This document shows positions 1 to 44,211 of a stretch of 52,731 nucleotides of DNA, one piece after another. Position 1 is the first letter of the stretch. Every line of letters starts with the position of its first letter. A program made the position numbers and the translations under genes. Below the pieces are notes generated by a model. It worked only from the letters and a program-made list of their open reading frames with translations, had not been told where the DNA came from and did not search any database. The stretch lies in the IMG/VR virus record IMGVR_UViG_3300050343_000104, positions 1 to 52,731 of that record; one strand, 5' to 3'. This stretch comes from a virus. Taxonomy: Duplodnaviria > Caudoviricetes.

Positions 1-248
1 GGAACCCAGCCAGCAACAGTATCTTCACCACAGTTAATAAATTTGTCAGTAACAAATTCACCCAGTGTATTTAATATTGCTACTTCAAAATGGCTATAGC
101 TTTCAGGTTCTAAGCCATTCTCATGGGGCGTAGAGTATAAACCATGACCTGCTTGTATACTTAGGGTTAATTTAGCTTTTGTGTTTAGCTTAGCTCCAAT
201 ACCGCCATGTAATTGCGGCACAAATTTTAAATCATTTACAGTTATCAT
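1..248 (-). CDS. hypothetical early protein (truncated by window edge)
   Basis: Hand translation from ATG at 248: MITVNDLKFVPQLHGGIGAK...FEVAILN...DTVAGWVP, open to position 1; not in the ORF track. Confidence 0.75.
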   Translation of the reverse strand, partial: MITVNDLKFVPQLHGGIGAKLNTKAKLTLSIQAGHGLYSTPHENGLEPESYSHFEVAILNTLGEFVTDKFINCGEDTVAGWV

Positions 249-307
249 ATCATTAATAGTATTAAGGTCATTATTATTATTATATTTAAAATTGAATATC
301 CGGTCAT
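245..307 (-). CDS. putative 20-aa hydrophobic micropeptide
   Basis: MTGYSILNIIIIMTLILLMI*, its TGA overlaps the next ATG (ATGA coupling). Confidence 0.4.
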   Translation of the reverse strand: MTGYSILNIIIIMTLILLMI

Positions 308-325
308 TAATTAAATCTTTTATAA

Positions 326-934
326 TTAATGGTAGATGAGTCCAATTTTGTGGTTGTCGGGACTGTACCATTTGGTTGCCCTAAGATCATACTCGCTGCT
401 ATCGTTATAGCCAGCACTGCTGAGATCACTAGCAGAGCTAAAAATTCTGGTGTGGCGGTCGTTCGTTTCATTTATTAAGTGTTTTTGTTTGCCTGAGTCA
501 CTGTATATAATATCATAGTTATCAGGTAGTTGTACTTCTTTAGTTAATTTTATCATGTTAGTGTAAGAATAGAACTTGACGTGAGGGTTGTGTATAGCAA
601 TTTGAATCCACTTATTTAAGTAAGCTCTACTATAATAATCGCCAGAGTCATGCACTCTTACAAAGTCGGGTTTCTTACGTCTGATCTCATCATTCATAGA
701 CTCAATAAATTTATCGGTCTTGCTCAACTCATATCGCTTTTCAAAAGCGGGTTGGACGTTAGACCAGATGTAAGCACCTTTCTTAGCATAACAGAACTTA
801 ACACACTCATCAGCCATAGGACAAGTAAGTTTACCTGATGCAGATTTATAAGCGGGTATACCGAAGTTCATTAGCTTAACGCCAAAGTGTTTACTAGTCT
901 TTTTGATTTTAGAATTTTGTGTAAGTAAGTTCAT
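326..934 (-). CDS. phage Gp88-like protein (radical-SAM-related, Cys cluster)
   Basis: NSKIKKT start, CPMADECVKFCYA Cys motif, FVRVHDSGDYYS and FYSYT motifs typical of the Gp88 family. Confidence 0.8.
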   Translation of the reverse strand: MNLLTQNSKIKKTSKHFGVKLMNFGIPAYKSASGKLTCPMADECVKFCYAKKGAYIWSNVQPAFEKRYELSKTDKFIESMNDEIRRKKPDFVRVHDSGDYYSRAYLNKWIQIAIHNPHVKFYSYTNMIKLTKEVQLPDNYDIIYSDSGKQKHLINETNDRHTRIFSSASDLSSAGYNDSSEYDLRATKWYSPDNHKIGLIYH

Positions 935-950
935 AGTTATTATTTTATAT

Positions 951-980
951 TATTATCTTAAGTTAAACGTATTTTGTCTG
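951..980 (-). promoter_or_regulatory. class E (early) promoter-like motif, copy 1
   Basis: Minus strand CAGACAAAATACG-N10-GATAATA, 16 nt before ATG 934. Confidence 0.8.
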
Positions 981-1223
981 TTAATCTAACAGAGTCATGT
1001 AAGCACTAGGGTTAGCCACACGAAACCAGTCAAGAGCTTTTCTAAAGTCTTTTTGTATTTCGTTACTCATTGGGATCATTTGACAACCGGTAATGAAATC
1101 ATATATTGATAATTCATTAGCATTCAGTGTTGCGCTTGAGCCGGAGAAAGGGTTAGATACATTACCGCCTTCAGTATATTGTGCGCCTCCTTTTTTTGTA
1201 AACCATTTTGGTAGATCTTTCAT
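981..1223 (-). CDS. hypothetical early protein
   Basis: 80-aa ORF tightly packed in the leftward array. Confidence 0.8.
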   Translation of the reverse strand: MKDLPKWFTKKGGAQYTEGGNVSNPFSGSSATLNANELSIYDFITGCQMIPMSNEIQKDFRKALDWFRVANPSAYMTLLD

Positions 1224-1224
1224 A

Positions 1225-1452
1225 TTATATTCTAGTAAATTTAAAGTTTAATGTTTTTAGTATTTTGTTAATAAATGCGCCAGCGGAAGGTGCTGCTCGT
1301 AGTCCTTCCCAAACAAATTTGGGTACGTCATAATACTCGTAACAGCTTGCGTTAGAGTACATTATAAATAATGTTCTAGATCGGTTGTAGTACGTCGCAT
1401 ATTGGATCGCACTAGATTCGACAATAAAGTCTTCTTTAATTATTTCACTCAT
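1225..1452 (-). CDS. KTSC domain protein
   Basis: ESSAI..ATY....RTLFI.Y.N...YEYYDVP..VWEGL.AAPSAG.FIN pattern. Confidence 0.8.
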   Translation of the reverse strand: MSEIIKEDFIVESSAIQYATYYNRSRTLFIMYSNASCYEYYDVPKFVWEGLRAAPSAGAFINKILKTLNFKFTRI

Positions 1453-1455
1453 AGG

Positions 1456-1938
1456 TTATTCGAATTGCGAAGCGCAGGTGTATAGCACTTCTTTGTTAGT
1501 ATTAGCACAGTGTGCTTTCTCATTAATATAATAGTTACGGTATGCAGCAACAGAATCGTTTTCAACTTTGTATTCATCAGGCATACATTGAGGCATGTCA
1601 GTAAGGCCAGTGTTAAAGATCGGGCCAGGTACTTGTGACAATACGTCACGACATTTAGTTATAGTAAGATGTTCTTTATTATAACGCTTTTTATATTCTT
1701 TGCCAAGAGCCATCATGTGAAAGTATAGCCAAGCATAGTTAGATCTTGATTGGCGTGTCCATACAGCAGATGGATGGTTTTTATGTGTTAACTTGTAAGG
1801 AACATCGATTTCACTGTCAAGCATTATATGTGCAGAACAAAGTAGTTGAGCGGACTCAAGGATCATTTTAACAACGTGCTTGTTGTATTGTAATTGTGCA
1901 GCACGTTCAGGGTCGGAGTTTAAATAAAATATATTCAT
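1456..1938 (-). CDS. pyrimidine-dimer DNA glycosylase / endonuclease V-like protein
   Basis: MNIFYL.SDP..AA....NKHVVKMILESAQLL, THKNHPSAVW, V.AYRNYY motifs of the phage DenV-like family. Confidence 0.75.
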   Translation of the reverse strand: MNIFYLNSDPERAAQLQYNKHVVKMILESAQLLCSAHIMLDSEIDVPYKLTHKNHPSAVWTRQSRSNYAWLYFHMMALGKEYKKRYNKEHLTITKCRDVLSQVPGPIFNTGLTDMPQCMPDEYKVENDSVAAYRNYYINEKAHCANTNKEVLYTCASQFE

Positions 1939-1943
1939 ACAGT

Positions 1944-1974
1944 TATTATCTTTAAGGTTACGTATTTAGTCTGC
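1944..1974 (-). promoter_or_regulatory. class E promoter-like motif, copy 2
   Basis: GCAGACTAAATACG-N10-GATAATA, only 5 nt before ATG 1938. Confidence 0.8.
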
Positions 1975-2514
1975 GATATTTAATTTCTCTATAGTGACAG
2001 TTATTTTATCTACCATTTTTTGATGTTTGTTTAATCCTTCATCAGTAAGTAATTGTTTGATTTCTTTAAGTAATTCAGGTACTTTAGATGGCCATTCATA
2101 GCCTTTGCTGTGGAATTCCATCTCGACATCAGCATATACATCTTCATATACTTTGTCACACATATCTTCAATAGCCTCGTCGATAATGCCCTCAGCATCA
2201 CAGTATATAGACAAACCGTTGCGTATAGCATCTTGTACTTCGTAAATGATTTGAGGAGAATGATCCTGGTAGAATATATCTTCATTCACGCATATTGAGT
2301 TAGGGTTATGTGTACATATCCATACAGAGTAGCCGTCACGTGTAGATTCTTCATACACATATAGATCTTGTTGTTCCCATCTATCGCTATAGCTTGCGCC
2401 GTAATGGTCTAGTACAAGCTGTGTGAATTCGCCGTTTTGTTCGCTAATTTGTTTTTCGCTAAAGCCAAGTTCGTGCATCGCTGCTTCAATTAATTCATCA
2501 GTTAATAGTTTCAT
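1966..2514 (-). CDS. acidic hypothetical early protein
   Basis: 182-aa ORF, TAACTATG start context. Confidence 0.8.
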   Translation of the reverse strand: MKLLTDELIEAAMHELGFSEKQISEQNGEFTQLVLDHYGASYSDRWEQQDLYVYEESTRDGYSVWICTHNPNSICVNEDIFYQDHSPQIIYEVQDAIRNGLSIYCDAEGIIDEAIEDMCDKVYEDVYADVEMEFHSKGYEWPSKVPELLKEIKQLLTDEGLNKHQKMVDKITVTIEKLNIAD

Positions 2515-2537
2515 AGTTATTATATTTAATTTTATTA

Positions 2538-2568
2538 TATTATCTTTTGTTTATCGTATTTTATCTGC
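2538..2568 (-). promoter_or_regulatory. class E promoter-like motif, copy 3
   Basis: GCAGATAAAATACG-N10-GATAATA. Confidence 0.8.
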
Positions 2569-2790
2569 AACTTGATCTAGTGCATCAAGTATATATTCGT
2601 AAATTTCTTTTTCACGTAGCTCACTGTCAAGTACCATTTCCATTTCGTCTTTAGTTACACCACCGTAGATACCAGTTTTTAACTGTTTTTTAGTATCTTC
2701 AACAGAAAACATAAGGTTTACCAGTTTGGCTTGGATCTTGTCGGTGGCCAACCAATGGGTATCAGGATTGATATTATTTTTTTCATTCAT
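2551..2790 (-). CDS. hypothetical early protein
   Basis: 79-aa ORF in array. Confidence 0.75.
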   Translation of the reverse strand: MNEKNNINPDTHWLATDKIQAKLVNLMFSVEDTKKQLKTGIYGGVTKDEMEMVLDSELREKEIYEYILDALDQVADKIR

Positions 2791-2794
2791 AGGT

Positions 2795-3067
2795 TTAGTT
2801 TAAGTTATTTAATTTATATTCACCAGATTCGATCTTAGCACGTGTTTCGTTGATACCTTCGCCATTTAAAAATAATCGTCTGTATTTACTTGTTGTATTA
2901 GAATAGTCCCAAGTATCTTCGTCTAATTGTATTTTACCGTGATATGGTTTGAATGCAATTATACTGCAATAACTTTGAAAGTATCTGCCGTCAGGTGTTG
3001 TAATTACAAATTGGTTAGGCACGTCGTTACCCGCATTACTTGTCATGTTTTTTACTTTGATTTTCAT
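2795..3067 (-). CDS. conserved phage hypothetical protein
   Basis: Likely start MKIKVKNMTS at 3067 (the longer track ORF runs into the tRNA-like element); VPNQFVI..FQSY.SIIA..WDYSNTTSKYRRLFL motifs. Confidence 0.75.
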   Translation of the reverse strand: MKIKVKNMTSNAGNDVPNQFVITTPDGRYFQSYCSIIAFKPYHGKIQLDEDTWDYSNTTSKYRRLFLNGEGINETRAKIESGEYKLNNLN

Positions 3068-3084
3068 ATTATATAGTTTAAAAT

Positions 3085-3155
3085 TAGTGGATAGTGAGGA
3101 ATCGAACCTCATACTCGTCAGCAGCACACCCGGTCGGGGCATCCATACCTATCCT
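3085..3155 (-). ncRNA. tRNA-like element (acceptor stem + T-arm, non-canonical D/anticodon region)
   Basis: Minus strand GGATAG...TGAGG-TTCGATT-CCTCA-CTATCC-A-CTA; perfect T-arm and 6-bp acceptor stem; 37-nt middle has no standard anticodon arm. Confidence 0.6.
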
Positions 3156-3412
3156 CCTCGTAGACATTTGCTAGCAGCTTAAAGAAAGCGCTCGGTTATT
3201 TATTCGCTACGATAATGTGTGGCTGGTTTCTTCTTAAGACATTTAATATACACTAATCCCAGTGAACACCACTTAATATTTTATGTACTACACAGCAATG
3301 TACATTGATCACATTTTCGCTGAACCACAAAGGGCTGTGAACTAACTAATAAATAATAAACTACAGGGTTATTTGCGTATAGCATACGCTGCCGCCCGGC
3401 CGCATTCAGTTA
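3156..3412 (-). ncRNA. putative structured RNA upstream of the tRNA-like element
   Basis: ORF-free ~260 nt with nested or adjacent stems: 3158-3163/3207-3212, 3214-3219/3310-3315, 3283-3288/3300-3305, 3320-3324/3405-3409, GCGTAT-AGC-ATACGC at 3375-3389. Confidence 0.4.
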
Positions 3413-3426
3413 AGAATTTTAATATT

Positions 3427-3618
3427 TTATTTTTCATCTTTTTCGTTTTCGGTTATTAATTTATTTACTCGTTCCATTCGGGTTTTTAAGTATTTTAAGT
3501 CGACTGGATCAATGTTATTATACTTTATAACGTCTTTATTGAGGTATTCAATTAAATGTTTAGTTGCATACATCATACAAATTAAGTTAGTATATTCTTT
3601 TGTTTTTAAGTTTATCAT
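3427..3618 (-). CDS. hypothetical early protein
   Basis: 63-aa ORF downstream of class E motif. Confidence 0.65.
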   Translation of the reverse strand: MINLKTKEYTNLICMMYATKHLIEYLNKDVIKYNNIDPVDLKYLKTRMERVNKLITENEKDEK

Positions 3619-3645
3619 AGTATTAAATTTTATTTGTTACACATT

Positions 3646-3676
3646 TATTATCTTGTAGAGTGCGTATTTTATCTGC
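3646..3676 (-). promoter_or_regulatory. class E promoter-like motif, copy 4
   Basis: GCAGATAAAATACG-N10-GATAATA. Confidence 0.8.
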
Positions 3677-3680
3677 AACT

Positions 3681-3872
3681 CTATAAATCTTTCTTGCGAA
3701 TCCAGGTTAAACCTTTATAGTTAAACCACTTGCGAACACCGTCATTATCATTGATCTCGTCGTATATATAGGCAAACTTGTTTGGTAGGTTAGCAAGATC
3801 GAAGCCAACGTGTAAGTCACCGTTTAATTTTAACTCTTTTTTAGTTCTTGAAAATTTTATAGTATTTGTCAT
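3681..3872 (-). CDS. hypothetical early protein
   Basis: Likely start MTNTIKF at 3872 (TAACTATG context) within track ORF 3681..3944. Confidence 0.7.
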   Translation of the reverse strand: MTNTIKFSRTKKELKLNGDLHVGFDLANLPNKFAYIYDEINDNDGVRKWFNYKGLTWIRKKDL

Positions 3873-3891
3873 AGTTATTAGTTTATTTGGT

Positions 3892-4233
3892 TTATAATTT
3901 ATCTCGTAAAATGTCAGAGAACGAAGTGCATACTCTACCCTCAATCATTTTTTCGGCTTCAGTGCGGACATCATTAAGTAATGTATTGTATTTACTTTCG
4001 CCATATAGTTTAAAGTATAGTTCTTTAAAGCCGCCGGATAAAACACGTTCGCCGTTTAAAAACCAATCGATTTCAGTGTCCATAGGATCGAAGGACCACT
4101 CAAGGTTGGGTTTTTCGGTTCTGAATACGTAACTATATACGGACACATGAGCGGTTATCAGCGAATCGACGTGTATAGCAACTTCAGCGTTGTAGGTAAA
4201 GGAAATGTTGTCAGTTAAGTGTGTAGTTTTCAT
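3892..4233 (-). CDS. hypothetical early protein
   Basis: 113-aa ORF, AAACTATG start. Confidence 0.75.
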   Translation of the reverse strand: MKTTHLTDNISFTYNAEVAIHVDSLITAHVSVYSYVFRTEKPNLEWSFDPMDTEIDWFLNGERVLSGGFKELYFKLYGESKYNTLLNDVRTEAEKMIEGRVCTSFSDILRDKL

Positions 4234-4236
4234 AGT

Positions 4237-4443
4237 TTATTTATTTAAAGTGTTAATTATATTTTTTATAGTTAATTCGGTTATACAATCTAGCATCTCA
4301 TAGTACTCATCGCCGTCTAGGTCGATGTTTAGATACTCTAGTTGATTGTTAATGGTGTCATACATTTGGTCTATAGTAACTTCAGCGATTTGTTGCGCTA
4401 AAATACCGGCATTGCTAGATAATTCTTGTTTAATAGTATTCAT
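4237..4443 (-). CDS. acidic hypothetical early protein
   Basis: 68-aa ORF, TAACTATG start. Confidence 0.75.
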   Translation of the reverse strand: MNTIKQELSSNAGILAQQIAEVTIDQMYDTINNQLEYLNIDLDGDEYYEMLDCITELTIKNIINTLNK

Positions 4444-4450
4444 AGTTATA

Positions 4451-4567
4451 TTAGTTGTAGTCGTTATATTCGTCCATTACATTAGACATTTGCTCTTTAG
4501 TTAGTGACCAATAGCTGATACCTGGGTATAGTCGGTCGGCGATTTTAAACATTTGTGTTGCGCTCAT
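4451..4567 (-). CDS. 38-aa early microprotein
   Basis: Hand translation MSATQMFKIADRLYPGISYWSLTKEQMSNVMDEYNDYN*, AAACTATG start, fills the gap after a promoter motif. Confidence 0.7.
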   Translation of the reverse strand: MSATQMFKIADRLYPGISYWSLTKEQMSNVMDEYNDYN

Positions 4568-4610
4568 AGTTTTATTAGTTTATAGTATTTATTATTATTA
4601 ATTTCACATT

Positions 4611-4642
4611 TATTATCTTTAGAGTTGCGTATTTATATCTGC
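4611..4642 (-). promoter_or_regulatory. class E promoter-like motif, copy 5 (one extra base)
   Basis: GCAGATATAAATACG-N10-GATAATA. Confidence 0.7.
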
Positions 4643-4644
4643 AA

Positions 4645-4977
4645 CTAGTATTTCGCTCTTATTTGGTCGGCACTACAATATGCCCACATTACTTTATTTA
4701 TAAATTCAACAGTGTTTACCGATTTTAACTCGATCGGAAAGGTGTATAGCATGGTTGCATAGAATTCCATTAGCCCTCGGTCATTCTCTGCATACTGTGA
4801 TTTGAATACATCATATTCGTCGCCTTGCATGAAATTCATACCGCATATTTTATTTTGTTCGTTATACTCTAGGTATATCCACCGATCTTGCGATTCACAC
4901 CAAAGGTGTTCTACTTTAATTACTTTAGATTCACACCAAATGTTTTCTGCTTTAATTACTTTATTATTTTTTTTCAT
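4645..4977 (-). CDS. hypothetical early protein with N-terminal 12-aa duplication
   Basis: 110-aa ORF, KVIKAENIWCES-KVIKVEHLWCES. Confidence 0.75.
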   Translation of the reverse strand: MKKNNKVIKAENIWCESKVIKVEHLWCESQDRWIYLEYNEQNKICGMNFMQGDEYDVFKSQYAENDRGLMEFYATMLYTFPIELKSVNTVEFINKVMWAYCSADQIRAKY

Positions 4978-5418
4978 AGTTTATTTAGTTCTTTAAATAG
5001 TGATTAGCTTAGGTTATAAGTGTCTTCGGTTATACAACCGTCTTGTTCAATAGCTTCAAGGTTGTCTATACCATGTGATCTAGTGCTACCAATATCACAT
5101 TCTTTTCGTAGTTACTTCACTGCATAGTTTATTTATTTTGACAGTTATTTAAGGTCGAAAGCGTATAGCAAACGTAGTCGATCGAGTTCATTATTATAGT
5201 AATGTCTCTAGTGTAATAGTAGTTACTACGTTTTGCATTATAATTAGTGCGTTTAACTTTAGTGTTAATTTGGTATAGTTTTACACCACGTCTTCTGAAG
5301 TATGGTATGATCTTTAGAGACTCACTCTAACATAACCGGATCTATAGGTGTAACCTAATCTACCGTCACTCATTTCACATTTAATTGTACCGTTTTTACT
5401 GATGTTTAATACTTTCAT
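4974..5418 (-). pseudogene. two small early genes with broken frames (starts 5418 MKVLNISKNGTIKCEMSDGR and 5125); probably sequencing indels
   Basis: Both have AACTATG start contexts and protein-like fragments in shifting frames. Confidence 0.5.
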
Positions 5419-5429
5419 AGTTATTTATT

Positions 5430-5606
5430 TTAGTTATATACTGTTTCTATTAGGTCGTGTACTAGATCTTCTTCAGACTCACCATCTTCTGGTATACAGT
5501 CAAGTTCTACAAATTCTTTAATTCTTTGTTCGATTTTTTCTCTACTTTCATAGTAAGACTCAAATTTAAAGTGGTCTACTGTGTCTTCATTCCAATTGTA
5601 CTTCAT
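5430..5606 (-). CDS. 58-aa acidic early microprotein
   Basis: MKYNWNEDTVDHFKFESYYESREKIEQRIKEFVELDCIPEDGESEEDLVHDLIETVYN*. Confidence 0.75.
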   Translation of the reverse strand: MKYNWNEDTVDHFKFESYYESREKIEQRIKEFVELDCIPEDGESEEDLVHDLIETVYN

Positions 5607-5642
5607 AGTTATTTATTTATTAGTTAATTTATTTATCACTTT

Positions 5643-5673
5643 TAATATCTTTTTATAGTCGTAATTTGTCTGC
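5643..5673 (-). promoter_or_regulatory. class E promoter-like motif, copy 6
   Basis: GCAGACAAATTACG-N10-GATATTA. Confidence 0.7.
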
Positions 5674-5678
5674 AACTC

Positions 5679-5721
5679 TATGACAACGTGTCGGTACACT
5701 ATGTCATGTCGAATTGTCATA
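5679..5721. promoter_or_regulatory. inverted repeat / TGTC cluster between divergent promoters (operator-like)
   Basis: TATGACAA(5679-5686)...TTGTCATA(5714-5721) with internal TGTCGG, TGTCAT, TGTCGA. Confidence 0.4.
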
Positions 5722-5752
5722 CCCTTTTTACTAAAATAATCTCTGATATTCA

Positions 5753-5781
5753 GTAGTTTTCACCAAAAACGTGTAATTATA
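5753..5781 (+). promoter_or_regulatory. class L (late) promoter-like motif, orphan copy with no downstream ORF
   Basis: GTAGTTTT-CACC-AAAAACGTGTAATTATA, same spacing as the three copies preceding late genes. Confidence 0.7.
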
Positions 5782-5784
5782 ATA

Positions 5785-5915
5785 GTATTTATAAAAACTC
5801 TTCTTTTAGTGTAATTTAGTTATATAGAGTTAACTTACTCACTGGTCTTATAGTGAGTCTCTGACTCTACTTTGTTAGTTTTACCTAACTAAATAGTATA
5901 TTTACACTTAAATAC
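5785..5915 (+). ncRNA. putative structured RNA (or DNA cruciform) directly downstream of the class L motif
   Basis: Five nested stems: 5785-5791/5909-5915, 5808-5814/5902-5908, 5815-5822/5886-5893, 5825-5832/5862-5869, 5837-5843/5852-5858. Confidence 0.55.
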
Positions 5916-5935
5916 CTTAGTGAGATCCGTTTTTA

Positions 5936-6094
5936 CTACATCGACCTAAATTCTTTATTGAAAAACCTAATTAGTTCGGTTGTAGTGAACTTCTTCCTCC
6001 ACTGAGTTGTCTGTTCGATCCAGTGGTACTCACCGCATTTCTCTACATTTCCGTCATTCATCCATTCTAACATTTCTTTAGTTACTTCATACAT
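5936..6094 (-). CDS. 52-aa early microprotein
   Basis: MYEVTKEMLEWMNDGNVEKCGEYHWIEQTTQWRKKFTTTELIRFFNKEFRSM*, TAACTATG start. Confidence 0.75.
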   Translation of the reverse strand: MYEVTKEMLEWMNDGNVEKCGEYHWIEQTTQWRKKFTTTELIRFFNKEFRSM

Positions 6095-6135
6095 AGTTAT
6101 TATATTTAATTATTAGTATTTTTTATATTCACTTA

Positions 6136-6166
6136 TATTATCTATTTAGGTGCGTGTTTCGTCTGC
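6136..6166 (-). promoter_or_regulatory. class E promoter-like motif, copy 7 (abuts 10-mer)
   Basis: GCAGACGAAACACG-N10-GATAATA. Confidence 0.75.
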
Positions 6167-6190
6167 GATGCTATACACAAACCGTCTGCA

Positions 6191-6250
6191 ATCGGTGAGA
6201 TTTGCCTACGGAACATAGGTATGCTATACACCCGTGGTAGATTCACCGAT
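6191..6250. other. long imperfect hairpin with the 10-mer in its loop
   Basis: ATCGGTGA(G)ATTTGCC(T)ACGG ... CCGT-GGTAGAT-TCACCGAT; G-T pairs occur on the + strand. Confidence 0.55.
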
Positions 6251-6279
6251 GTTTTGGTTAGTTAGCCGAAGCTATAAGC

Positions 6280-6597
6280 CTACTTTTTAGTAGACTTAGC
6301 TTCAGTTATAGTTGCCAGATGTCTGACAGTGCTCGGTAAGTTAGTACTTTGTGACCAGTACTTTCTTTTGATCCAGCAAGCCTGTAATTGTAGCTTAGGC
6401 AGCATTGCATTTAGTATTGTGTCATGACAGTACGTCACAGTTTGATTTTTATTGTTGATGAAAGTTATCTGTTGATTGCGGCCGAGCCAGCTTTCTCTTA
6501 CAACAAAGTTCTTTCTGGTTAGCGGTGGCCAGATCGCTGCTTTTTCTGAGTTAGACATAGTTTTTAGAGCTTTTTGCATTAATTCATTTGTAGTCAT
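6280..6597 (-). CDS. basic hypothetical early protein
   Basis: 105-aa ORF; followed by a TAGC-TTCG-GCTA tetraloop hairpin (6263-6274, minus strand). Confidence 0.8.
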   Translation of the reverse strand: MTTNELMQKALKTMSNSEKAAIWPPLTRKNFVVRESWLGRNQQITFINNKNQTVTYCHDTILNAMLPKLQLQACWIKRKYWSQSTNLPSTVRHLATITEAKSTKK

Positions 6598-6652
6598 AAT
6601 TTTAAATTTTAAGTTATTATTATTATTATTAGTTATTTACTTTATTCACTTA

Positions 6653-6683
6653 TATTATCATAAACACAACGTATTCCGTCTGC
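6653..6683 (-). promoter_or_regulatory. class E promoter-like motif, copy 8 (abuts 10-mer)
   Basis: GCAGACGGAATACG-N10-GATAATA. Confidence 0.8.
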
Positions 6684-6802
6684 AATGCTATACACAGATC
6701 CAGCTGTAAAAATGCTATATGCTATACACGCCGGACCCCGGCTGGTTACCTCCGAGGTCAATTAGCTGAGATCATCCCATCTCACACCAGGATCCGTGTG
6801 CT

Positions 6803-6955
6803 TTAGACTGACGCCCAGAACAGATCTTGCTGCTCTGGACTTAAGCCCTTTAGATTATCCTGCCCGAACATATCTTGGCAGATTTGTGTGCGTCTGATAG
6901 ACTCGTCATACTTTGCTGAGATCCTGTCCCAGGCTTGTGAATTTGTTTCGTACAT
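6803..6955 (-). CDS. 50-aa early microprotein
   Basis: MYETNSQAWDRISAKYDESIRRTQICQDMFGQDNLKGLSPEQQDLFWASV*. Confidence 0.7.
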   Translation of the reverse strand: MYETNSQAWDRISAKYDESIRRTQICQDMFGQDNLKGLSPEQQDLFWASV

Positions 6956-6957
6956 AA

Positions 6958-7062
6958 TTAATTGATTTGTGTTAGTGAGTTAAGGTATTCGACAGCCAGT
7001 GCCAGTTCATAGTCGTAGTTCAGTGCCTGAGTGTACAGGTATTCTTCATTATAGTTTTCCAT
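6958..7062 (-). CDS. 34-aa acidic early microprotein
   Basis: MENYNEEYLYTQALNYDYELALAVEYLNSLTQIN*. Confidence 0.65.
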   Translation of the reverse strand: MENYNEEYLYTQALNYDYELALAVEYLNSLTQIN

Positions 7063-7063
7063 T

Positions 7064-7141
7064 TTAGTTTCGTATTGCGGCAGCTGCAGCTGATCCCAGG
7101 TTAGACATTACTTCATTCATTTTAATTAAGATTGCTTTCAT
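7064..7141 (-). CDS. 25-aa early microprotein
   Basis: MKAILIKMNEVMSNLGSAAAAAIRN*, first ORF after the outermost class E motif. Confidence 0.6.
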   Translation of the reverse strand: MKAILIKMNEVMSNLGSAAAAAIRN

Positions 7142-7181
7142 AAGATTTAATTTAATTATTATTATTATTTATATTCAACTA

Positions 7182-7212
7182 TATTATCTAGTGAACAACG
7201 TAAACCGTCTGC
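7182..7212 (-). promoter_or_regulatory. class E promoter-like motif, copy 9 (abuts 10-mer)
   Basis: GCAGACGGTTTACG-N10-GATAATA. Confidence 0.75.
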
Positions 7213-7225
7213 AAATGCTATACGC

Positions 7226-7245
7226 GCTACGCTGCGCTGCGCTGC
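7226..7245. repeat. 4 x GCTRC tandem repeat
   Basis: GCTAC-GCTGC-GCTGC-GCTGC. Confidence 0.7.
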
Positions 7246-7446
7246 TATAATACGTAGCAATCCAATAGCCAGAAGCAAAGTGCTAAATACCCTGGATAAA
7301 ATGCCTGGCAAAAGGCAAAAGTTATTTACTAAACCCTAAAACAAAAGGGGGACTGGGTAAAATGAATTGCGTTTTCTGTAGGAAAAAGTTTTTTTAAATA
7401 AGCATGTAGCCCTATACCTCTTATTATATAATAATGGTTTTTACCT

Positions 7447-7475
7447 GTAGCTTTCGGAAAAAACGTGTAATTATA
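7447..7475 (+). promoter_or_regulatory. class L promoter-like motif heading the late block
   Basis: GTAGCTTT-CGGA-AAAAACGTGTAATTATA, 26 nt before ATG 7502. Confidence 0.8.
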
Positions 7476-7501
7476 TATAACCATATAATAGAATGTAACG
7501 G

Positions 7502-7801
7502 ATGGCTTCAAAACAAAAATTATCGCCTGTGGCTAGAAAAGCAAAAGCGAAGAGAGACCTAGCTTATGCTAAGACGGCGGATAGACGTAAAAAGAAAGCA
7601 CATGCACAGAGAGAAAGGCGTAGAGCTAAACGTAGCGGGAAAAATGTTGATGGGCTAGATTGGGATCATAAAGATGGGCGATGGGAAAAGATTTCACGTA
7701 ATAGGGCTAATGACGGAGAGGGGACTAAAAAAGAAGGCAAAAAGAAATATAAGGTACCGAAGCGCAAGCGAAGGGCTAAAACTAAAAAGAAAAAGAAATG
7801 A
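7502..7801 (+). CDS. very basic protein with HNH-like core
   Basis: K/R-rich; DGLDWDHKDG...ISRNRA resembles compact phage HNH proteins. Confidence 0.6.
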   Translation: MASKQKLSPVARKAKAKRDLAYAKTADRRKKKAHAQRERRRAKRSGKNVDGLDWDHKDGRWEKISRNRANDGEGTKKEGKKKYKVPKRKRRAKTKKKKK

Positions 7802-10800
7802 GTATTATAACTACGTACCCCCTTATTGGGGATGTTGCCCCTGCTGATTTACTGATCATTGCGGACATGAGTATTTTAGGTACCCCTACTAGAACTGTTA
7901 GTATTCAACAGCTCGTAGATGAGATGGGAGGAAGCTACTCCTGGTTTGTAGGAGGTGTCGGCGGTTTTGAAGTAACAGCCAGTGAAACTGTAACATTTAC
8001 GGGAGGTATTAAATTAACTGCTGTAAATAATTCAGGAAATCAATCGGTTACATTTAATCACGATAATACTAGTAGAACAGATACTACCTCAGCTGTTACA
8101 CCTGGATCAGGAGGAACATTTACGGTTATTGACTCTATTGTACAAGACGCTACTGGACATACAACTTTAGTTAATACTAAAACAGTTACGATGCCTTCGG
8201 GCGGTGGCGGTAATGTTATTAGTGTTGGCTTGTCTGCTCCTTCGGCTTTTACGGTAAGTAACAGTCCTGTTACTACTAGTGGCACTTTAACTTTTACGGG
8301 AGCTGGCACTACGGCGCAATTTATAGACGGCACGGGATCTTTGCAAGCCATTTCTTCTATACCCGGTGGGGTATCTCAAATTGTTGCGGGACAAAATGTA
8401 ACAATATCGCCTGTGGGCGGTACGGGTGTTGTAACTATTAATGCTAGCGGAGGAGGCGGTGGTGGCACTGTAACCAGTGTGGACGCTAGTACTGGGGGAG
8501 ACGCTTTGGATGTATTTGTTTCTGATCCTACAACTACGCCGGATTTAGCATTTACATGGGCAGGAACTAACGGACAGTATGTTAACGGGGAAGGAAACTT
8601 AATAGATCTTCCAGCTACGGCTACAACCTATAATTTAGATGCTGACCAGGACGGATTAAATGTGGACCTTAATTTAACACCCTCTGTAGGTATCGCCGAT
8701 GTCGTTAAGCTTACAGCAGGTACGGGTATAGCCTTAACCGAAACTGGTAATAATAATATTACAATTGCAACTAGTGGAAATACTGGGTTGACCTCGGTGG
8801 GGGCTAGCAGTAATTACTTAACTATAAGCAACTCCCCACTTACAAGCAACGGTGTTATTCAAGTGAATATGCCTGCTAATGGGGTTACTGTAGGAACTTA
8901 TACCAATGCTACTGTAGAGGTAGATCAATATGGGTTTGTTACTAATGTTTCTAGTGGCTCTGTAATACCTAATAATATAGTAGAAACTATAACCACAACA
9001 GACGGGCAGTTTATTGAGCTAACTCCTAACTCTCCTACATCGGGGGCCGTAGCTGTTACCGCAGATCTTTCTGCTACCGGTACACCTAGTTCTACCACGT
9101 TCCTTAGAGGAGATAATACGTGGGCGGTGCCATCAGGAGGTGGAGGTGGCGGTACTATGAGTAGCTGGATAGCTGGAGACGGAAGCAACACTCAAACTAT
9201 AACAGACGGTGACCAAGTTAATTTTAATGCTACTACTAAACTGTCATCAAGTATTTCTCTTGTAGCTGGGGTGGTAGAATTAAATTTCAGCCATGACTCA
9301 ACTTCTCGTAGTGATACCACAAGTACGTATTCTTTAGGATCAGGAGGGTCGTTTACTAAAGTAGATAGTGTAACTACTGATTCTACGGGACATATAACCG
9401 CTATAAATTTAGAAACGGTTAACATAGACTCTTTTGATAATTATGGTTCCTGGACATTATCTGGAGACGGCGGACAAAATCAAGTAATCTTCGGAGGGAA
9501 CACGGTTGATATAATTGGTGGATCAAAAATCGCTACAGTCTCTTCGAATACAAACATTCTTACAATAGACCATGATAGTACAACTAGATCGGATACTTCT
9601 TCTAGCGTTTCACCCGTAGCGGGCGGAACCTTTACTGTAGTAGATAGCATAACTCAAGATGTTACAGGTCATATAACGGCTACAAATCTTAAGACAGTAA
9701 CGTTGCCCTCAGCGGGAGGCAGCATGAGTCAATGGTTTGTAGATGACGGTGGATCACAATTTTTTTCCGTGCAAAACAACGATAGTGTTTTTATTAACGG
9801 TACCGCTAAGATTGATGTTACGGCCTCAGCCGCAAATAAATCGGTTACATGGACACATACTAACACAAATAGGAATGATACAACTTCAGCGGTTACTCCA
9901 GGTAGTGGCGGAACTTTTACTGTAGTAGATTCTATAACACAAGATGCTACGGGACACCCAACAGCAATAAATGTTAAAACTGTTACGATGCCTACTACCG
10001 GAGGTGGAGGAGGTGCAACTTATGATTTAACATCGGCACAGGATGGCAATAATGTTGATATAAAACTAACCCCCTCAACGGGAGCTGTAGATATAGTACA
10101 ATTAACAGCAGGAACAGGAGTGACTTTAGCGGATAATGGGTTTAATAGTATAACCATTAGTGCTAGCGGGGCAAATTCCGTAAATGAAACGACTCCAGGA
10201 ACATCATCAGGGATTCCTATAGAGGTTAACCCCACTACAGGTAATGTACTAGTTAAGTCAATGGCTTACGCAGGAACAAATAATGTAGGACATGTTCCAG
10301 CAGGAGGTAATGCAACCACCTTTTTGCGGGGAGATGGTAGCTGGCAAACCCCGAGCAATACCGAGTATCTTGCAGGAACAGGAATGACACTGCAAGGAAA
10401 TATATTTAAGGCTAATGTTAGCGGGACTCTTCAGTCAGTTGCTCCACAAACCGTCACAGGAACTAGCGCTAGAACTTATGCAGTTCAAGTCGACGGATCA
10501 AACGATTTAGTAGTTAATGTACCCTGGACTGGAGGCTCGCCAAGGGGAGCAGGTGTTGGTTTAACACTTAACGGTAATAACATAGACGCTAATGTAGCAG
10601 GTCTTCAACTAATAGCGGCTAACGCGGTGACTAATAATGGGCAAAGAACTTATCAAGTTCAAGTCGATGCCTCTGATAACTTAGTGGTAAATGTACCGTG
10701 GACGGACACAGGCGGATCAGTAACTTCTGTGGCAGCTGCTATTAATGGTAATGCTTATGTGGCTTCGGTAAATAACCCTACAACAACCCCCTCAATAGCA

Positions 10801-12075: not shown

Positions 12076-13584
12076 ATGAGTATATTAACTACATATCCTG
12101 GAATTACAAACGTATCTGGTGAAGATCTATTAGTAATATCTGACATGAGCTTACCTGGAACACCCACGCGTTCTGTTACTGTTAATCAGTTAATAGCAGG
12201 TGGTGGAGGCGGAGTCTTAAGTGTTAATGCAAATGCTGACGGAAATGCAATTGTAGTATCAGGAGGACCTATTACTTCAATTGGAACCCTACAATTTGGG
12301 TTTACGGGTCTTAGTAGCCAATACATAAACGGTCAAGGTAATTTAGCTAATTTTCCACCAGTGGGTTCGGGAACAGTAACAGATGTGTCTTACTCAACTA
12401 ATATAGCAGCATTTACCGCTGGGGTCATAAATGCAACCACTACTCCATCTTTAACATTAAATCTAAATGGAGGAAGTACCGGTCAATTCTTAAGACAAGA
12501 CGGAACTTGGGCTACAGTACCCACGGGAAGCGGAACCGTAGAAAGCGTAGGATTATCAACTAATATTGCGGCTTTTCAGGTTGTTAACAGCCCAATAACA
12601 GGAATAGGTGTACTAGAAATAAATTTAAACGGTGGGAGCACCGGGCAGTTTTTAAGACAGGACGGAACCTGGGCTACAATACCGGGAGGTAATCCAGGGA
12701 CTGTTACAGAGGTTGGGGTTTCTAGTAACTACTTAACAATAGGTAACACACCTATTACATCAAATGGTACTATATCAGTAAATGTACCTGTCCAATCTAA
12801 TTTAACCGCAGGGGCTTACACTAATGCTAATATTACCGTAGATCAATATGGATTTGTTACGGCTGCGGCAAATGGCAGTGGCGGCGGCGGCGGTGTATCG
12901 CAAATTGTTGCGGGTACCAATATAACTATAAGCCCCCCGGCAGGAACCGGAGTGGTAACTATAAATTCGACTGATCAATTTGTAGGAACTGTTACATCTG
13001 TTACAGGACAAGACGGAATAGTTATGACAGGTACAGCTAGTAATCCTGAAGTAAATGTAGATTATTTAGGAACTGATAATTATATACTTACAGCAGCTAA
13101 TCCAGATCCCCTAGTTCCCGTCAGTAGGGAAGATAGCATGAACTTCAGCACAGTGCGTATCACAAAGCAAATTTATCATACTACATTAGCAGATATAATA
13201 GATACGGGTAATGGCTATAAAATGACGGCATTTAGACTAAATGTAGCTTCTGCTGGAGCAACGCCTACAATAACAATGATAAATAATAATATAGGGGGCG
13301 CCTGGTCAATTACTAGAATAGGGGTTGGGGTATATGATATTTCAAATTCTAATGGCACTATTTTTACAGATAAAACAATTTGTTATATAAATAACCCAAA
13401 CGTAACGGGAGCATCGGGGGCAACCACTAATGTATTCCCACAAGCTACTAACATACGGCGCAAAGCAGTTAGTCTAATAGCTATCGAATGCTTTGAGGTA
13501 GGAACTACTACAGGCAACAGAGGGGATGTTGCTGATCTTGGGACCGCAAATCCTATATATGTAGAAATAAAAATTTACGATTAA
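12076..13584 (+). CDS. tail fibre protein, paralogous N-terminus to 7798 ORF
   Basis: MSILTTYP...DLLVISDMSLPGTPTRSV; 2x STNIAAF...NLNGGSTGQFLRQDGTWAT. Confidence 0.8.
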   Translation: MSILTTYPGITNVSGEDLLVISDMSLPGTPTRSVTVNQLIAGGGGGVLSVNANADGNAIVVSGGPITSIGTLQFGFTGLSSQYINGQGNLANFPPVGSGTVTDVSYSTNIAAFTAGVINATTTPSLTLNLNGGSTGQFLRQDGTWATVPTGSGTVESVGLSTNIAAFQVVNSPITGIGVLEINLNGGSTGQFLRQDGTWATIPGGNPGTVTEVGVSSNYLTIGNTPITSNGTISVNVPVQSNLTAGAYTNANITVDQYGFVTAAANGSGGGGGVSQIVAGTNITISPPAGTGVVTINSTDQFVGTVTSVTGQDGIVMTGTASNPEVNVDYLGTDNYILTAANPDPLVPVSREDSMNFSTVRITKQIYHTTLADIIDTGNGYKMTAFRLNVASAGATPTITMINNNIGGAWSITRIGVGVYDISNSNGTIFTDKTICYINNPNVTGASGATTNVFPQATNIRRKAVSLIAIECFEVGTTTGNRGDVADLGTANPIYVEIKIYD

Positions 13585-13594
13585 AAAAAAATAA

Positions 13595-14284
13595 ATGGCT
13601 AGAATTAGTACATATAATATAGATGAAAAAGTATCGGGGGGAGATCTTCTAGTCGGGTCAGCAGCTAATTCAGGAGGTGCAACAAAAAATTACACAATAG
13701 CATCCATTAGCGATTATATTTCTGTAGCTGAGCAAATGAAGTTTAAGTACGTTAGCCAATCTTATTATGGAGCTGGTACTTTTTCTATACCTTCAGGGGC
13801 TTCAGATAACATGCCCATGATTAATCTATCTAATATAGCTATATCTAGGAAAGATTTGTCACCACAAGATACCGTAGAGTTTTTAACCTATTTAATAGGT
13901 TCGGATATATTAATTGTAAAGCAAGATGATGTATCTAATTTTGGTCACTTTAAAATAGACAGTTATACAGTAAACACAGCAGAGCCAGCTTATTTTAATA
14001 TGGTCCTCACTTATATTGGAGGTAATGGAGTATTAAAATTAGAAGAGTTCTATAATATTGTAAACTTTGTTAAAGCAACAGATGTAGGAGATAAAACATT
14101 TAATTATGATCAAATTACCCCTTCGTCTACTTGGAATATAAATCACAACTTAAATAAATTTCCATCGGTTTCTGTGGTAGATACCTCAGGCACGAAAGTA
14201 TATACTGATGTTAACTATATAGATAATAATAATGTAACCTTAACGTTTTCTGTTTCTTTCGCAGGTAAAGCGTACTTAAACTAA
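13595..14284 (+). CDS. virion fibre/structural protein
   Basis: MARISTY..D...DLLVGS N-terminus; C-terminal W.INHNLNKFPSVSVVD...F.GKAYLN domain. Confidence 0.75.
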   Translation: MARISTYNIDEKVSGGDLLVGSAANSGGATKNYTIASISDYISVAEQMKFKYVSQSYYGAGTFSIPSGASDNMPMINLSNIAISRKDLSPQDTVEFLTYLIGSDILIVKQDDVSNFGHFKIDSYTVNTAEPAYFNMVLTYIGGNGVLKLEEFYNIVNFVKATDVGDKTFNYDQITPSSTWNINHNLNKFPSVSVVDTSGTKVYTDVNYIDNNNVTLTFSVSFAGKAYLN

Positions 14285-14289
14285 AAAAA

Positions 14290-15825
14290 ATGCCAATATT
14301 TTACGACCCCATTAATTTAGCCACCAATCAGCTAGAACAAGCTAGAATTGAGAACTTAGGAACTGACCCCGGATCAGGAGTATCGGGGCAAATTTATTAC
14401 AACACAACAGCTAATAAATTAAAATACTATAACGGTACCGCTTGGGGCTTTATAGATACTACTTCAGCCGATAACGATTATCTAACAGGATTAGCTTTTA
14501 ATACTGCTAACGGTATTTTAACCGCAACAGTACAAAACCAAAATAGTGTTACAGTAGACTTAGACGGCAGATATGCATTAACTGGAGATGTACCAACTGT
14601 AGGTAATGGAACTTTAACGGTTCAAGGAACAGGAGTTCTGGGAGGAACCGGAACATTTACAGCAAATCAAGCTGGAAATTCTACTATAACTATAACTCAT
14701 GATTCGCAAACAAGAACCGATACAACAAGCACAGGTTCGCCTGCTTTTGGAGGTACGTTTACTGCGGTAGATAGTGTTAGCTCTAATGCGTCTGGGCATA
14801 TTACAGCTATAAACTTAAAAACACTAACATTACCCACCCCGTCTTCAAGCACTGACAACTACGTAGATTCCGTGGCTTTTAGTACGGCTAATGGAACTTT
14901 GACATTAGGAAGAACTGGTGCACTAGCTGATTTAAGCGTAGACTTAGATGGAAGATATTTAGAAGCAAATGAAACCATAACTTTATCAGGAGATGTAACA
15001 GGGTCTGGAACTACTTCAATAACAACGACAATTTCTTCTGGAGCAGTTGATTTTGCAATGATAAATTCAGCGGTTGTTATAACAGAAACTGAAGGAATAT
15101 CTAATAACGATAATGATGTAACCTTACCTACTTCGGCTGCTGTTAAAGCTTATGCAGATAGTTTAATAGTAGGAGGATTAATATATCAAGGTGGATATAA
15201 CGCAGCAACTAATACACCTGATTTAGATTCCTCTCCTAGTTCAAGTATTAAAAAAGGTTGGACATACACTGTTACTGATCCGGGATTGTTCTTTACAGAG
15301 CAGGTTCGCGCGGGTGATGTACTTATTGCAGAAGCAGATGCACCTACTGCGCTTGCTGATTGGACTACTGTTCAAAATAACATTGATCTTGCAGATCTAA
15401 CTACTGTAGGTATTGGCAATGTAAATGCTTCAGTAGCTAATACATTAGACGGATTAAATGTATCTTATTCGTCAGGTACCGCCACCGTAGGATTAGATGT
15501 AGCTGGTTTAACAGAGTTATCGGATATTGCAGGGGGAGACTCCTTAATAATTTATGACCTAAGTGGAACTAAAAATCATAAGGTATCTGTAGGTGCGTTA
15601 AACACAGCGGTTAATTCAGCTAGTACTTATGCAACCACTGTATCTGCGACAGCCACTATAACGCACGGTTTGGGGACAAAAGATGTAATAGTGCAATTAT
15701 ATGATACGGTAACGGATTTAACGGTATATGCTAGAGTAGATAGAATATCTACATCACAAGCTACAATAACTTTTAATCCTGCACCTTCTAATAGTGTAAG
15801 AGTATTAGTACAAAAAATAGGATAA
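14290..15825 (+). CDS. tail fibre protein
   Basis: G/T-rich, DLDGRY repeats, LPTSAAVKAY, C-terminal ITHGLGTKDVIVQLYD domain. Confidence 0.8.
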   Translation: MPIFYDPINLATNQLEQARIENLGTDPGSGVSGQIYYNTTANKLKYYNGTAWGFIDTTSADNDYLTGLAFNTANGILTATVQNQNSVTVDLDGRYALTGDVPTVGNGTLTVQGTGVLGGTGTFTANQAGNSTITITHDSQTRTDTTSTGSPAFGGTFTAVDSVSSNASGHITAINLKTLTLPTPSSSTDNYVDSVAFSTANGTLTLGRTGALADLSVDLDGRYLEANETITLSGDVTGSGTTSITTTISSGAVDFAMINSAVVITETEGISNNDNDVTLPTSAAVKAYADSLIVGGLIYQGGYNAATNTPDLDSSPSSSIKKGWTYTVTDPGLFFTEQVRAGDVLIAEADAPTALADWTTVQNNIDLADLTTVGIGNVNASVANTLDGLNVSYSSGTATVGLDVAGLTELSDIAGGDSLIIYDLSGTKNHKVSVGALNTAVNSASTYATTVSATATITHGLGTKDVIVQLYDTVTDLTVYARVDRISTSQATITFNPAPSNSVRVLVQKIG

Positions 15826-15841
15826 TATAAAATATAATTAA

Positions 15842-16534: not shown

Positions 16535-16535
16535 T

Positions 16536-16946: not shown

Positions 16947-16959
16947 TTAAATAAGTTTT

Positions 16960-16988
16960 GTAGTTTTTTTAAATTACGTGTGATTATA
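16960..16988 (+). promoter_or_regulatory. class L promoter-like motif upstream of groEL
   Basis: GTAGTTTT-TTTA-AATTACGTGTGATTATA, 17 nt before ATG 17006. Confidence 0.75.
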
Positions 16989-17005
16989 TAATAAAATCTA
17001 ATTAA

Positions 17006-18548: not shown

Positions 18549-18549
18549 T

Positions 18550-44188: not shown

Positions 44189-44211
44189 TAAAATATTAAA
44201 TTTAGTAAAAA

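Follow-up and report, generated by a model that had tools for sequence, protein, structure and literature searches.

TGCTATACRC, a polar 10-base-pair word around the early/late control region of an uncultured marine tailed phage and its relatives, and a small late-block protein as its candidate reader

The stretch of DNA analysed here, hereafter the window, is the whole of the IMG/VR virus record IMGVR_UViG_3300050343_000104 (Caudoviricetes; 52,731 bases, 84% complete), and the subject of this study is a 10-base-pair (bp) word, TGCTATACRC, that is repeated around its early/late control region on one strand to the left and on the other strand to the right. From position 1 to about 7140 the minus strand is packed with small genes, and from 7502 the plus strand carries large structural genes, including those for the terminase (large subunit at 25326-26657, about 17.5 kilobases (kb) from p99, a gene described below), the portal and a protein with a crAss-type muzzle domain. 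Flavobacterium Elemovirus and an environmental podovirus have portals 41-49% identical to that of the window, and for Cellulophaga podoviruses the figure is about 33%. The genes of the window start without Shine-Dalgarno sequences, in the context AAATAACTATG, and starts of this type presumably point to a Bacteroidota host. A megablast of positions 1-9000 against cultured phages gave zero matches, Rfam gave zero families on 1-8000 (E<=1), ARAGORN gave zero tRNAs, and a generic promoter and terminator scan was uninformative. Three genes recur in the argument.

7502 to 7801, plus strand: p99, first gene of the late block, 99 amino acids (aa), very basic, with a conserved core of about 80 aa
6280 to 6597, minus strand: p105, a conserved immediate-early gene between the plus-strand arrays of the word
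53567 to 54331 of the related record G001 (= L117:5568-6332), minus strand: a sigma-70-family gene (regions 2 and 4) with homologues in L265-L344, at a position beyond the window's left end

We found 13 exact copies of TGCTATACRC in the window, where 100 dinucleotide shuffles gave an expectation of 0.23 (standard deviation 0.45, maximum 2) and none of the 100 reached 13, and no other 10-mer of normal complexity is as frequent in the window. With up to one mismatch allowed there are 19 sites in total against 6.2 expected, that is, six added to the exact copies, and only one of the one-mismatch sites (6713, overlapping the copy at 6720) lies in the region. As the mismatch sites stay at background, TGCTATACRC is a sharply defined word. 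The exact search reproduced the 13 positions and strands given in a preliminary description of this DNA, with 41621 as the sole extra copy, and bore out its statistics, and with them the flip in orientation reported there as being without exception: seven of seven copies are on the minus strand below 5170, five of five are on the plus strand across 6169-7225, and the lone extra at 41621 is also on the plus strand. The copies are as follows.

590 to 599, minus strand: TGCTATACAC, within the GP88-family gene 326-934, codons I-A-I-H
1478 to 1487, minus strand: in the 3'-end part of the Pyr_excise-like gene 1456-1938, codons L-Y-T, 26 nucleotides (nt) before an ATG at 1452
2221 to 2230, minus strand: TGCTATACGC, within gene 1966-2514, codons A-I-R
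3375 to 3384, minus strand: intergenic, with a GC-rich stretch before it and about 300 nt without a convincing open reading frame (ORF) after it
4171 to 4180, minus strand: within gene 3892-4233, codons A-I-H, codon 18
4742 to 4751, minus strand: within gene 4645-4977, codons L-Y-T
5161 to 5170, minus strand: intergenic, the final minus-strand copy ahead of the flip
6169 to 6178, plus strand: adjoins TCGCAG, the upstream edge of the promoter-like element of gene 5936-6094
6222 to 6231, plus strand: in the apical part of a long hairpin at about 6188-6251
6686 to 6695, plus strand: adjoins TTGCAG of the promoter-like element of gene 6280-6597 (p105)
6720 to 6729, plus strand: overlapped by the one-mismatch copy at 6713 and directly followed by the GC hairpin GCCGG-ACC-CCGGC at 6730-6742
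7216 to 7225, plus strand: beside TTTGCAG of a third promoter-like element, then a (GCTGC)n GC-rich stretch, 277 nt before the p99 start
41621 to 41630, plus strand: alone within the late gene 41424-41888, in the A-I-H frame

The copies inside genes are read in two frames, A-I-H/R (590, 2221, 4171) and L-Y-T (1478, 4742), and those inside ORFs of relatives in all three, so that the word is not a protein motif, as had been stated at the outset; the copies at 3375 and 5161 are intergenic. Gene direction stays minus across the flip (ORFs 5936-6094, 6280-6597 and 6803-6955), again in line with the first account. The stretch 6140-6285 folds at -47.2 kcal/mol on the plus strand (z -3.4, with G-U pairs used) and with a z of -1.4 on the minus strand. 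The isolated copy at 41621 may or may not be part of the system.

Two details were observed next to minus-strand copies. Downstream of the copy at 3375, at about 3070-3370 on the minus strand, the stretch without a convincing ORF contains a T-arm-like tRNA word, GAGGTTCGATTCCTC, at about 3095-3110; ARAGORN and Rfam returned nothing for about 3070-3370, and the true start of the listed ORF 2795-3142 is probably an ATG near 3066. Besides, 35 nt past the copy at 5161, a perfect start context, AAATAAATAAACTATG, with a two-codon mini-ORF (ATG CAG TGA) is present at 5123-5131 on the minus strand.

Two classes of promoter-like element are found in the same region. Class E, about 45 bp long, occurs seven times on the minus strand with the form T[TC]GCAGAyAAAATACG-N10-AGATAATAAATGTGAA, and class L occurs on the plus strand.

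6128 to 6168, minus strand: class E, T[TC]GCAGAC..A.ACG-N10-AGATAATATAAGTGAA, adjoined by the word
6645 to 6685, minus strand: class E, sister copy, adjoined by the word
7174 to 7215, minus strand: class E, sister copy, adjoined by the word
ending at 5635, 4603, 3638 and 2530, minus strand: class E, four copies without the word
5768 to 5781, plus strand: class L, AACGTGTAATTATA, pointing right, at the flip
7462 to 7475, plus strand: class L, second exact copy of AACGTGTAATTATA, 26 nt before the p99 start

The three rightmost class E copies precede gene 5936-6094, gene 6280-6597 (p105) and the small genes near 7140-6803, respectively, and each has the word on the opposite strand at its upstream edge, T(T/C)GCAG (6169, 6686 and 7216), an adjacency that the preliminary description had already noticed. 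Variants of class L are present at 16975 and 32675 in gaps before late genes, and the class directly precedes p99, other late genes and genes following sigma. The equivalent of the class L element at 5768 is kept in G001, and no class L equivalent was found upstream of the arrays in two other related records, G002 and G005. Contigs from an RNA library cover positions 1-9000 unevenly; one of them spans 6642-6798, i.e., an array and a promoter element, and in that run the depth was about 108-114 in the immediate-early part versus 0-3 in the late genes. These contigs are strandless and lack starts and ends, DNA carry-over is possible, and the uncovered parts are uninformative.

The word is repeated in related records, with 22 copies in G001, 13 in G002 and 6 in G005, where the reversed control word occurs 0-1 times. 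Zero copies were found in G003 and G004, and the cultured Elemovirus and the environmental record MW202828 have zero exact copies and one-mismatch counts equal to the control counts. When IMG/VR was searched for pairs of copies separated by 2-32 bases, at least 119 contigs were recovered, mostly of 50-65 kb, and 80 of these loci contain 377 copies in 705 kb. A logo of the 364 unique copies from these 80 loci shows ten informative positions plus 'not C' at -1, and nothing else. With 85 loci anchored on the first late gene (p99), 257 copies in the 2 kb upstream point towards it and 17 away, and between -5 and -11 kb none points towards it and 42 point away; the late genes, followed for up to 10 kb in the same loci, contain 1 copy only. 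In 80 loci anchored on the sigma gene, a sample independent of the choice of motif, 102 copies are co-oriented and 3 opposed in the bins from -5 to +2 kb. The polarity is thus mirrored in the sigma-anchored sample, and the flip is therefore a fixed design feature and not an accident of one genome. The copies reach about 10 kb on one side of the switch and 1-3 kb on the other, and then stop.

In G001, extra copies are found outside the early region at 13319, 38465 and 42634 (minus) and 46843 (plus), all opposed to the local genes. The ends of this 62.8-kb contig (1-1472 and 61193-62841) overlap by 1.47 kb with 96-99% identity and an indel of about 200 nt. The overlap covers p105 and the array region, and could reflect either strain variation at circular closure or a real long terminal repeat.

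Across the relatives, the copies fall into two classes. Array copies point towards the late genes, are confined to the gaps between immediate-early genes, and stand singly or in tandem. Tandem copies are mostly 12 bp apart (71 pairs), with 27, 14 and 17 pairs at 13, 14 and 24 bp, the lower bound of 12 being set by the search pattern, and the commonest unit is TGCTATACGC-GT-TGCTATACAC. A GC-rich hairpin begins 0-4 nt past the last array copy in 139 of 168 unique cases, and the 45 nt downstream fold at -9.7 kcal/mol for arrays versus -4.9 kcal/mol for scattered copies. The array hairpins are strand-symmetric (-9.72 versus -9.60 over 168 arrays) and vary in sequence. Scattered copies are found on the sense strand of the early operon without a hairpin, and 98 of the 106 unique ones lie inside ORFs (71, 18 and 9 in the three frames). 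A position within 40 nt of the next start was found for 14% of the scattered copies versus 11% of random positions, and only a few copies, the one at 1478 in the window and two in G002, lie 9-35 nt before a start codon.

The scattered class also provides a view of what is conserved. At a site in the ERF gene that was aligned in 76 loci, 24 loci encode A-I-H, 20 of them with exactly T-GCT-ATA-CAC, neighbouring codons drift synonymously, and the remaining 52 loci show 32 other tripeptides. The site tolerates many residues, and therefore the DNA word itself is what is kept. This comparison indicates that the scattered copies are under nucleotide-level selection. Synonymous-site conservation of copies inside genes was a test that the preliminary description had set for its proposal beforehand, and it is seen here in 20 of the 24 loci. 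Together with the family-wide flip, this retention strengthens the proposal made there of an undescribed polar cis-acting system, and we regard a cis function of the motif as highly probable. The 12-bp tandem arrays with their GC hairpins, the co-occurring small-protein gene and the sigma factor of relatives had not been part of that description.

The search for a reader was based on gene content. A comparison of the ORFs of eight genomes, four motif-bearing and four motif-less, detected p99 in all four motif-bearing records (G000, G001, G002 and G005) and not in G003, G004, Elemovirus or MW202828. A few families share this distribution; p105 is one of them, and both p99 and p105 are small genes beside the arrays. 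The sigma gene was present in the three motif-bearing records that cover its position (three of three) and undetected in the motif-less records of the same set. Among 80 sigma-encoding loci, 34 have no copy of the motif, and p105 and class E promoters are retained in many loci that lack the motif. Since motif-less loci with sigma or p105 exist, the sigma-anchored sample separates p99 from both. In the 25 sigma-anchored loci with enough flank, p99 was accompanied by two or more copies in 12 and by fewer than two in 2, and loci lacking p99 numbered 0 with two or more copies and 11 with fewer than two (Fisher p 2e-5). As for p105, it is conserved in 90 of 119 related loci and lies on the opposite strand to the first late gene in 71 of the 71 loci holding both; its predicted fold is confident, with no significant match in the PDB (best E 1.9), and the language-model Atlas was uninformative on it. 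No repressor or integrase was found among the window proteins scanned, and a helix-turn-helix (HTH) repressor domain was absent from the 28 proteins, a subset of the ORFs, that were scanned with Pfam.

In the p99 family, Q5, L7, A11, K15, R18, D19, A23, D53, H56, N67 and R68 are invariant and D55 is near-invariant. The structural model (predicted local distance difference test score, pLDDT, 82) consists of two long helices followed by a beta-beta-alpha unit, on which D53, H56, N67, R68 and D55 are placed, and contains no HTH; some members have flanking Cys residues. Among 8000 candidates scored, 4591 proteins belong to the family at E<=0.001, and among the 120 matches listed none has a Pfam domain or a name beyond 'hypothetical', apart from one unrelated source label; longer fused forms carry DUF6973 alone. 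In the Atlas, the nearest Pfam-bearing clusters are HNH_3 (67% of members) and HNH, at 0.91 with 182-185 shared features, and we take the D-x-D-H...N pattern to recall HNH nucleases. Pfam on 38 members gave zero HNH matches, the PDB profile search and Foldseek gave zero matches, and hhalign against one annotated phage HNH protein gave a probability of 0.3%. Considering its distribution, p99 is the likeliest partner of the motif, and as a candidate reader we give it about an even chance.

Based on these observations, we tentatively propose that TGCTATACRC is the orientation-dependent recognition site of p99 and serves to shut off early transcription, with operators at promoters and stoperator-like sites within the operon; taken as a whole, this is a possible reading that we place clearly below even. 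Once late transcription starts, p99 would be made and would occupy sites of two kinds: the tandem arrays with their spacing of mostly 12 bp, directly upstream of the three class E promoters at 6.1-7.2 kb, and the single sense-strand sites found about every 0.4-1.2 kb through the early operon. At the arrays, p99 would turn down the immediate-early promoters; at the single sites its effect would be stoperator-like, a polar block or inactivation of RNA polymerase during elongation, and the site-free late genes would stay open. We infer p99 as the binder, double-stranded DNA as the target and early shut-off as the outcome. The array geometry is typical of cooperative protein binding, and shut-off by p99 would account for the arrays at promoter edges, the sites inside genes, the site-free late genes and the link with a late-block gene. 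It would only partly explain why the arrays are reversed, which calls for either a requirement of promoter geometry or transcription that runs rightward from the class L copy at 5768, and the rule that sites are co-oriented with the gene blocked holds only if rightward transcription, for example from class L 5768, crosses the arrays.

Several results weigh against this proposal. The five plus-strand copies are opposed to the surrounding annotated minus-strand genes, and the four extra copies of G001 exceed chance (about 0.25 per genome) and are explained by no proposed model. The link between p99 and the motif corresponds to about three changes on the sigma tree with one well-supported independent pair, and p99 adjoins the arrays, so that plain linkage could explain part of the association. 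In an unbiased scan, other early families were as strongly associated or more so (a 75-aa family 22 vs 4, a GP88-like family 14 vs 1); both are missing from some motif-bearing genomes (G002 or G005). Loci L292 and L304 encode a divergent p99 with a Cys insert and have one copy each, the one in ERF, and the p99-less loci L322 and L326 retain the ERF copy. Finally, the invariant D-x-D-H...N-R pattern of p99 suggests catalysis rather than mere binding.

This last point leads to an explanation in which the copies are strand-specific nick sites and p99 is a minimal HNH (beta-beta-alpha-metal) nickase cutting one strand at or near TGCTATACRC, with outward-facing programmed single-strand interruptions that would end early transcription or serve as entry points for ERF/PDDEXK recombination and replication. 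We consider it unlikely. Its attraction lies in the invariant residues on the predicted beta-beta-alpha unit, with N-R 11 residues after D-x-D-H, in the Atlas neighbours and the flanking Cys of some members, in a strand polarity as strict as a nickase site would show, and in the ERF and PDDEXK-like nuclease genes that relatives carry downstream. Localised single-strand interruptions at a consensus word on one strand are a feature of T5- and phiKMV-type genomes, and we know of no counterpart among nick sites for a strand switch at a control region combined with tandem arrays. Phage HNH proteins of 76-130 aa, among them the N.phiGamma family with its 76-aa minimal domain, are site- and strand-specific nickases (PMC3592412). 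Yet Pfam, PDB profile, Foldseek and hhalign gave no link of sequence, profile or structure between p99 and HNH proteins, the known small phage HNH nickases read 3-7 bp and adjoin cos and the terminase, the latter being about 17.5 kb from p99, and neither the 12-bp tandem arrays nor the site-free late genes would be predicted. The more specific idea that the p99 family consists of beta-beta-alpha nucleases of about 80 aa reading a 10-bp word, the outward nicks acting as a DNA-damage timer that ends early transcription, is rather improbable. To a similar degree we doubt that the word acts as RNA or on the non-template strand, as an element resembling boxA plus boxB or ops (with the hairpin, in arrays) that is read in the early mRNAs, as well as in an RNA, late or antisense, running rightward from about 5.77 kb, by the Arg-rich helices of p99 or by host elongation factors, resulting in antitermination, processing or decay. 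All 12 copies would be on the sense strand of an outward transcript if class L 5768, which is conserved in G001, fires to the right; the hairpins follow the arrays closely and are more stable than the sequence after scattered copies; at 6140-6285 the plus-strand fold is the better one; and the RNA-library contig over 6642-6798 and the depth of the immediate-early part are in keeping with such transcripts. The outward geometry around divergent promoters resembles that of nutL and nutR of phage lambda, which face outward on the downstream side of divergent promoters and are recognised by a small protein rich in arginine, and as in these elements and in ops a linear word is followed by a hairpin. 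On the other hand, the array hairpins are strand-symmetric and unconserved in sequence, the many scattered copies are bare and mostly inside genes, there are seven copies per operon versus one or two for nut and ops, a class L equivalent was not found upstream of the arrays in G002 and G005, the contigs are strandless, and Rfam gave no match.

Lower still in probability are two explanations that refer to transcription start or to replication. The word could be the core of an extended -10-like promoter (TGnTATAC..) without a -35, firing outward on both sides with a phage sigma or another phage factor. The extended -10 consensus is TGnTATA, which TGCTATAC fits, phage sigmas that use a single short element are represented by T4 gp55 (TATAAATA) and phiEco32 gp36, and here too a short exact word occurs in relatives that encode a sigma-70-family protein, co-oriented with outward transcription and in a few cases 9-35 nt before a start codon. 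This promoter reading is disfavoured by the 34 of 80 sigma loci without the motif, by the placement of 98 of 106 scattered copies in ORFs without enrichment before starts, and by the late genes, which are free of the motif and carry class L instead; tandem promoters spaced by 12 bp are implausible, and the start from an array would fall within the adjoining hairpin. Equally slight is the probability that we assign to replication origin iterons or a pac/cos region, the scattered copies then assisting a fork, a translocase or the terminase as polar accessory sites. Tandem direct repeats in non-coding DNA beside hairpins, the orientation of all copies away from one point and the 1.47-kb overlap of the G001 ends, by which assemblies break in this region, would suit it. 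It is opposed by the presence of three promoter-tied arrays instead of one cluster, by the distance from the terminase and the primase-helicase (about 8-10 kb in G001), by the unequal reach of the copies on the two sides (about 10 kb versus 1-3 kb), and by G005, a terminal-repeat record with its arrays in mid-contig; strain variation at circular closure would explain the G001 overlap just as well. Of the options listed in the preliminary description, stoperator-like sites thus give the best fit, and loading around a bidirectional origin and a shared RNA motif are retained at the low probabilities given above. The Chi-like or end-protection option is unsupported: the sites are confined to about 12 kb around the switch, are near-absent from the late genes and track a phage gene and not the host, and a host-read word of the Chi or KOPS type is disfavoured by the single copy in up to 10 kb of late genes in 85 loci and the absence of the motif from related phages. 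A virion RNA polymerase as reader was likewise found to be unsupported, as neither Pfam nor the PDB matched any of the giant virion proteins, which also lack a shared DxDxD motif.

Among known systems, the one described here seems to work most like the stoperators of Cluster A mycobacteriophages, yet it differs in type of binder, site placement and lifestyle. Cluster A repressors bind more than 20 asymmetric 13-mers that are oriented with transcription, an orientation on which repression depends (PMC9283540). As in L5, Bxb1 and TipsytheTRex, many copies of a short asymmetric site are present (10 bp here, 13 there), one class lies at early promoters and another through the transcription units, and orientation flips between the arms. 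Orientation follows transcription in 7 of 7 copies of the early operon of the window and in 42 of 42 and 102 of 105 copies in the anchored samples, and the five array copies oppose the local genes. The candidate p99 is not related to the monomeric HTH repressor of temperate Cluster A phages; it is a small protein encoded by the first gene of the late block. Cluster A sites lie mainly in short intergenic gaps genome-wide, whereas 98 of 106 scattered copies here lie in genes and the late genes are site-free. The promoter-side 12-bp tandem arrays next to hairpins are a further difference from Cluster A.

A scan of bacterial genomes for tandem pairs returned at least 120 matches versus about 130 chance pairs estimated in 596 gigabases, and among the matches listed the gaps look scattered by eye, unlike the 12-14 bp peak of the phages. 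A full-text literature search for the word, which covered main texts, gave unrelated titles among the matches listed, apparently by chance (e.g., primers), and a search of the literature on Cellulophaga phage sigma factors and early genes found no paper on regulation in this group. We rate the system as known in kind, i.e., polar multi-copy cis sites read by a phage protein, the motif and the candidate protein family as undescribed, and the array-plus-hairpin architecture as unusual.

Further repeats were observed in relatives at or near the place of the arrays. In the motif-less L240 (MW202828.1), 11 copies of a 16-bp palindrome, GTGTCGTTAACGACAC, are present at 43745-49880, apparently in early-gene gaps, and the record annotates a 'repressor protein'; these palindromes look like an alternative, symmetric arrangement at the corresponding genomic position. 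Near the expected array place of the motif-less L290, a run of CTATA-type pentamers (ACTATACTATAC...) was found at 161-373. Many relatives (e.g., L184, L222 and L147) have a conserved long inverted repeat, GTGACATTAGCTA...TAGGCTAACGTCAC, about 40-100 nt before p99 and just upstream of the late promoter-like element, and the window is without an obvious equivalent. In both G001 and G002, a AAAACGTGTAATTATA element is present directly after the sigma gene as well as before late genes, and it may be this sigma's promoter.

Two observations concern genes elsewhere in these genomes. The word AACGTAGGTAT occurs ten times at 13065-17068 of G002, apparently within the gene of a 1510-aa protein (14129-18661), and the repeats probably represent a repeated protein domain. 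The terminase large subunit of the window is split into two plus-strand ORFs, 24442-25251 and 25326-26657 (269 and 443 aa), with a gap of 74 nt; the second ORF covers only positions 295-755 of the PHROG profile, and the counterpart in G001 is a single ORF of 736 aa. A frameshift, a stop or a small insertion could have split the gene, or the assembly could be at fault.

Within genes the motif restricts the coding sequence (A-I-H, L-Y-T, C-Y-T), a clean example of overlapping codes. It also gives a testable handle on gene control in this phage group, which is abundant in marine and other environmental metagenomes and whose cultured relatives examined here are without the motif: one 10-mer, one candidate protein of about 80 aa and a prediction of orientation-dependence. 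If p99 nicks, it would be the smallest natural nickase with such a long specificity, and of practical interest; the DNA-damage timer, if true, would also seed recombination-dependent replication and be a new temporal switch in abundant marine phages. If p99 binds, these phages would provide a case of stoperator-like shut-off with an independent origin in a lytic phage that apparently infects Bacteroidota.

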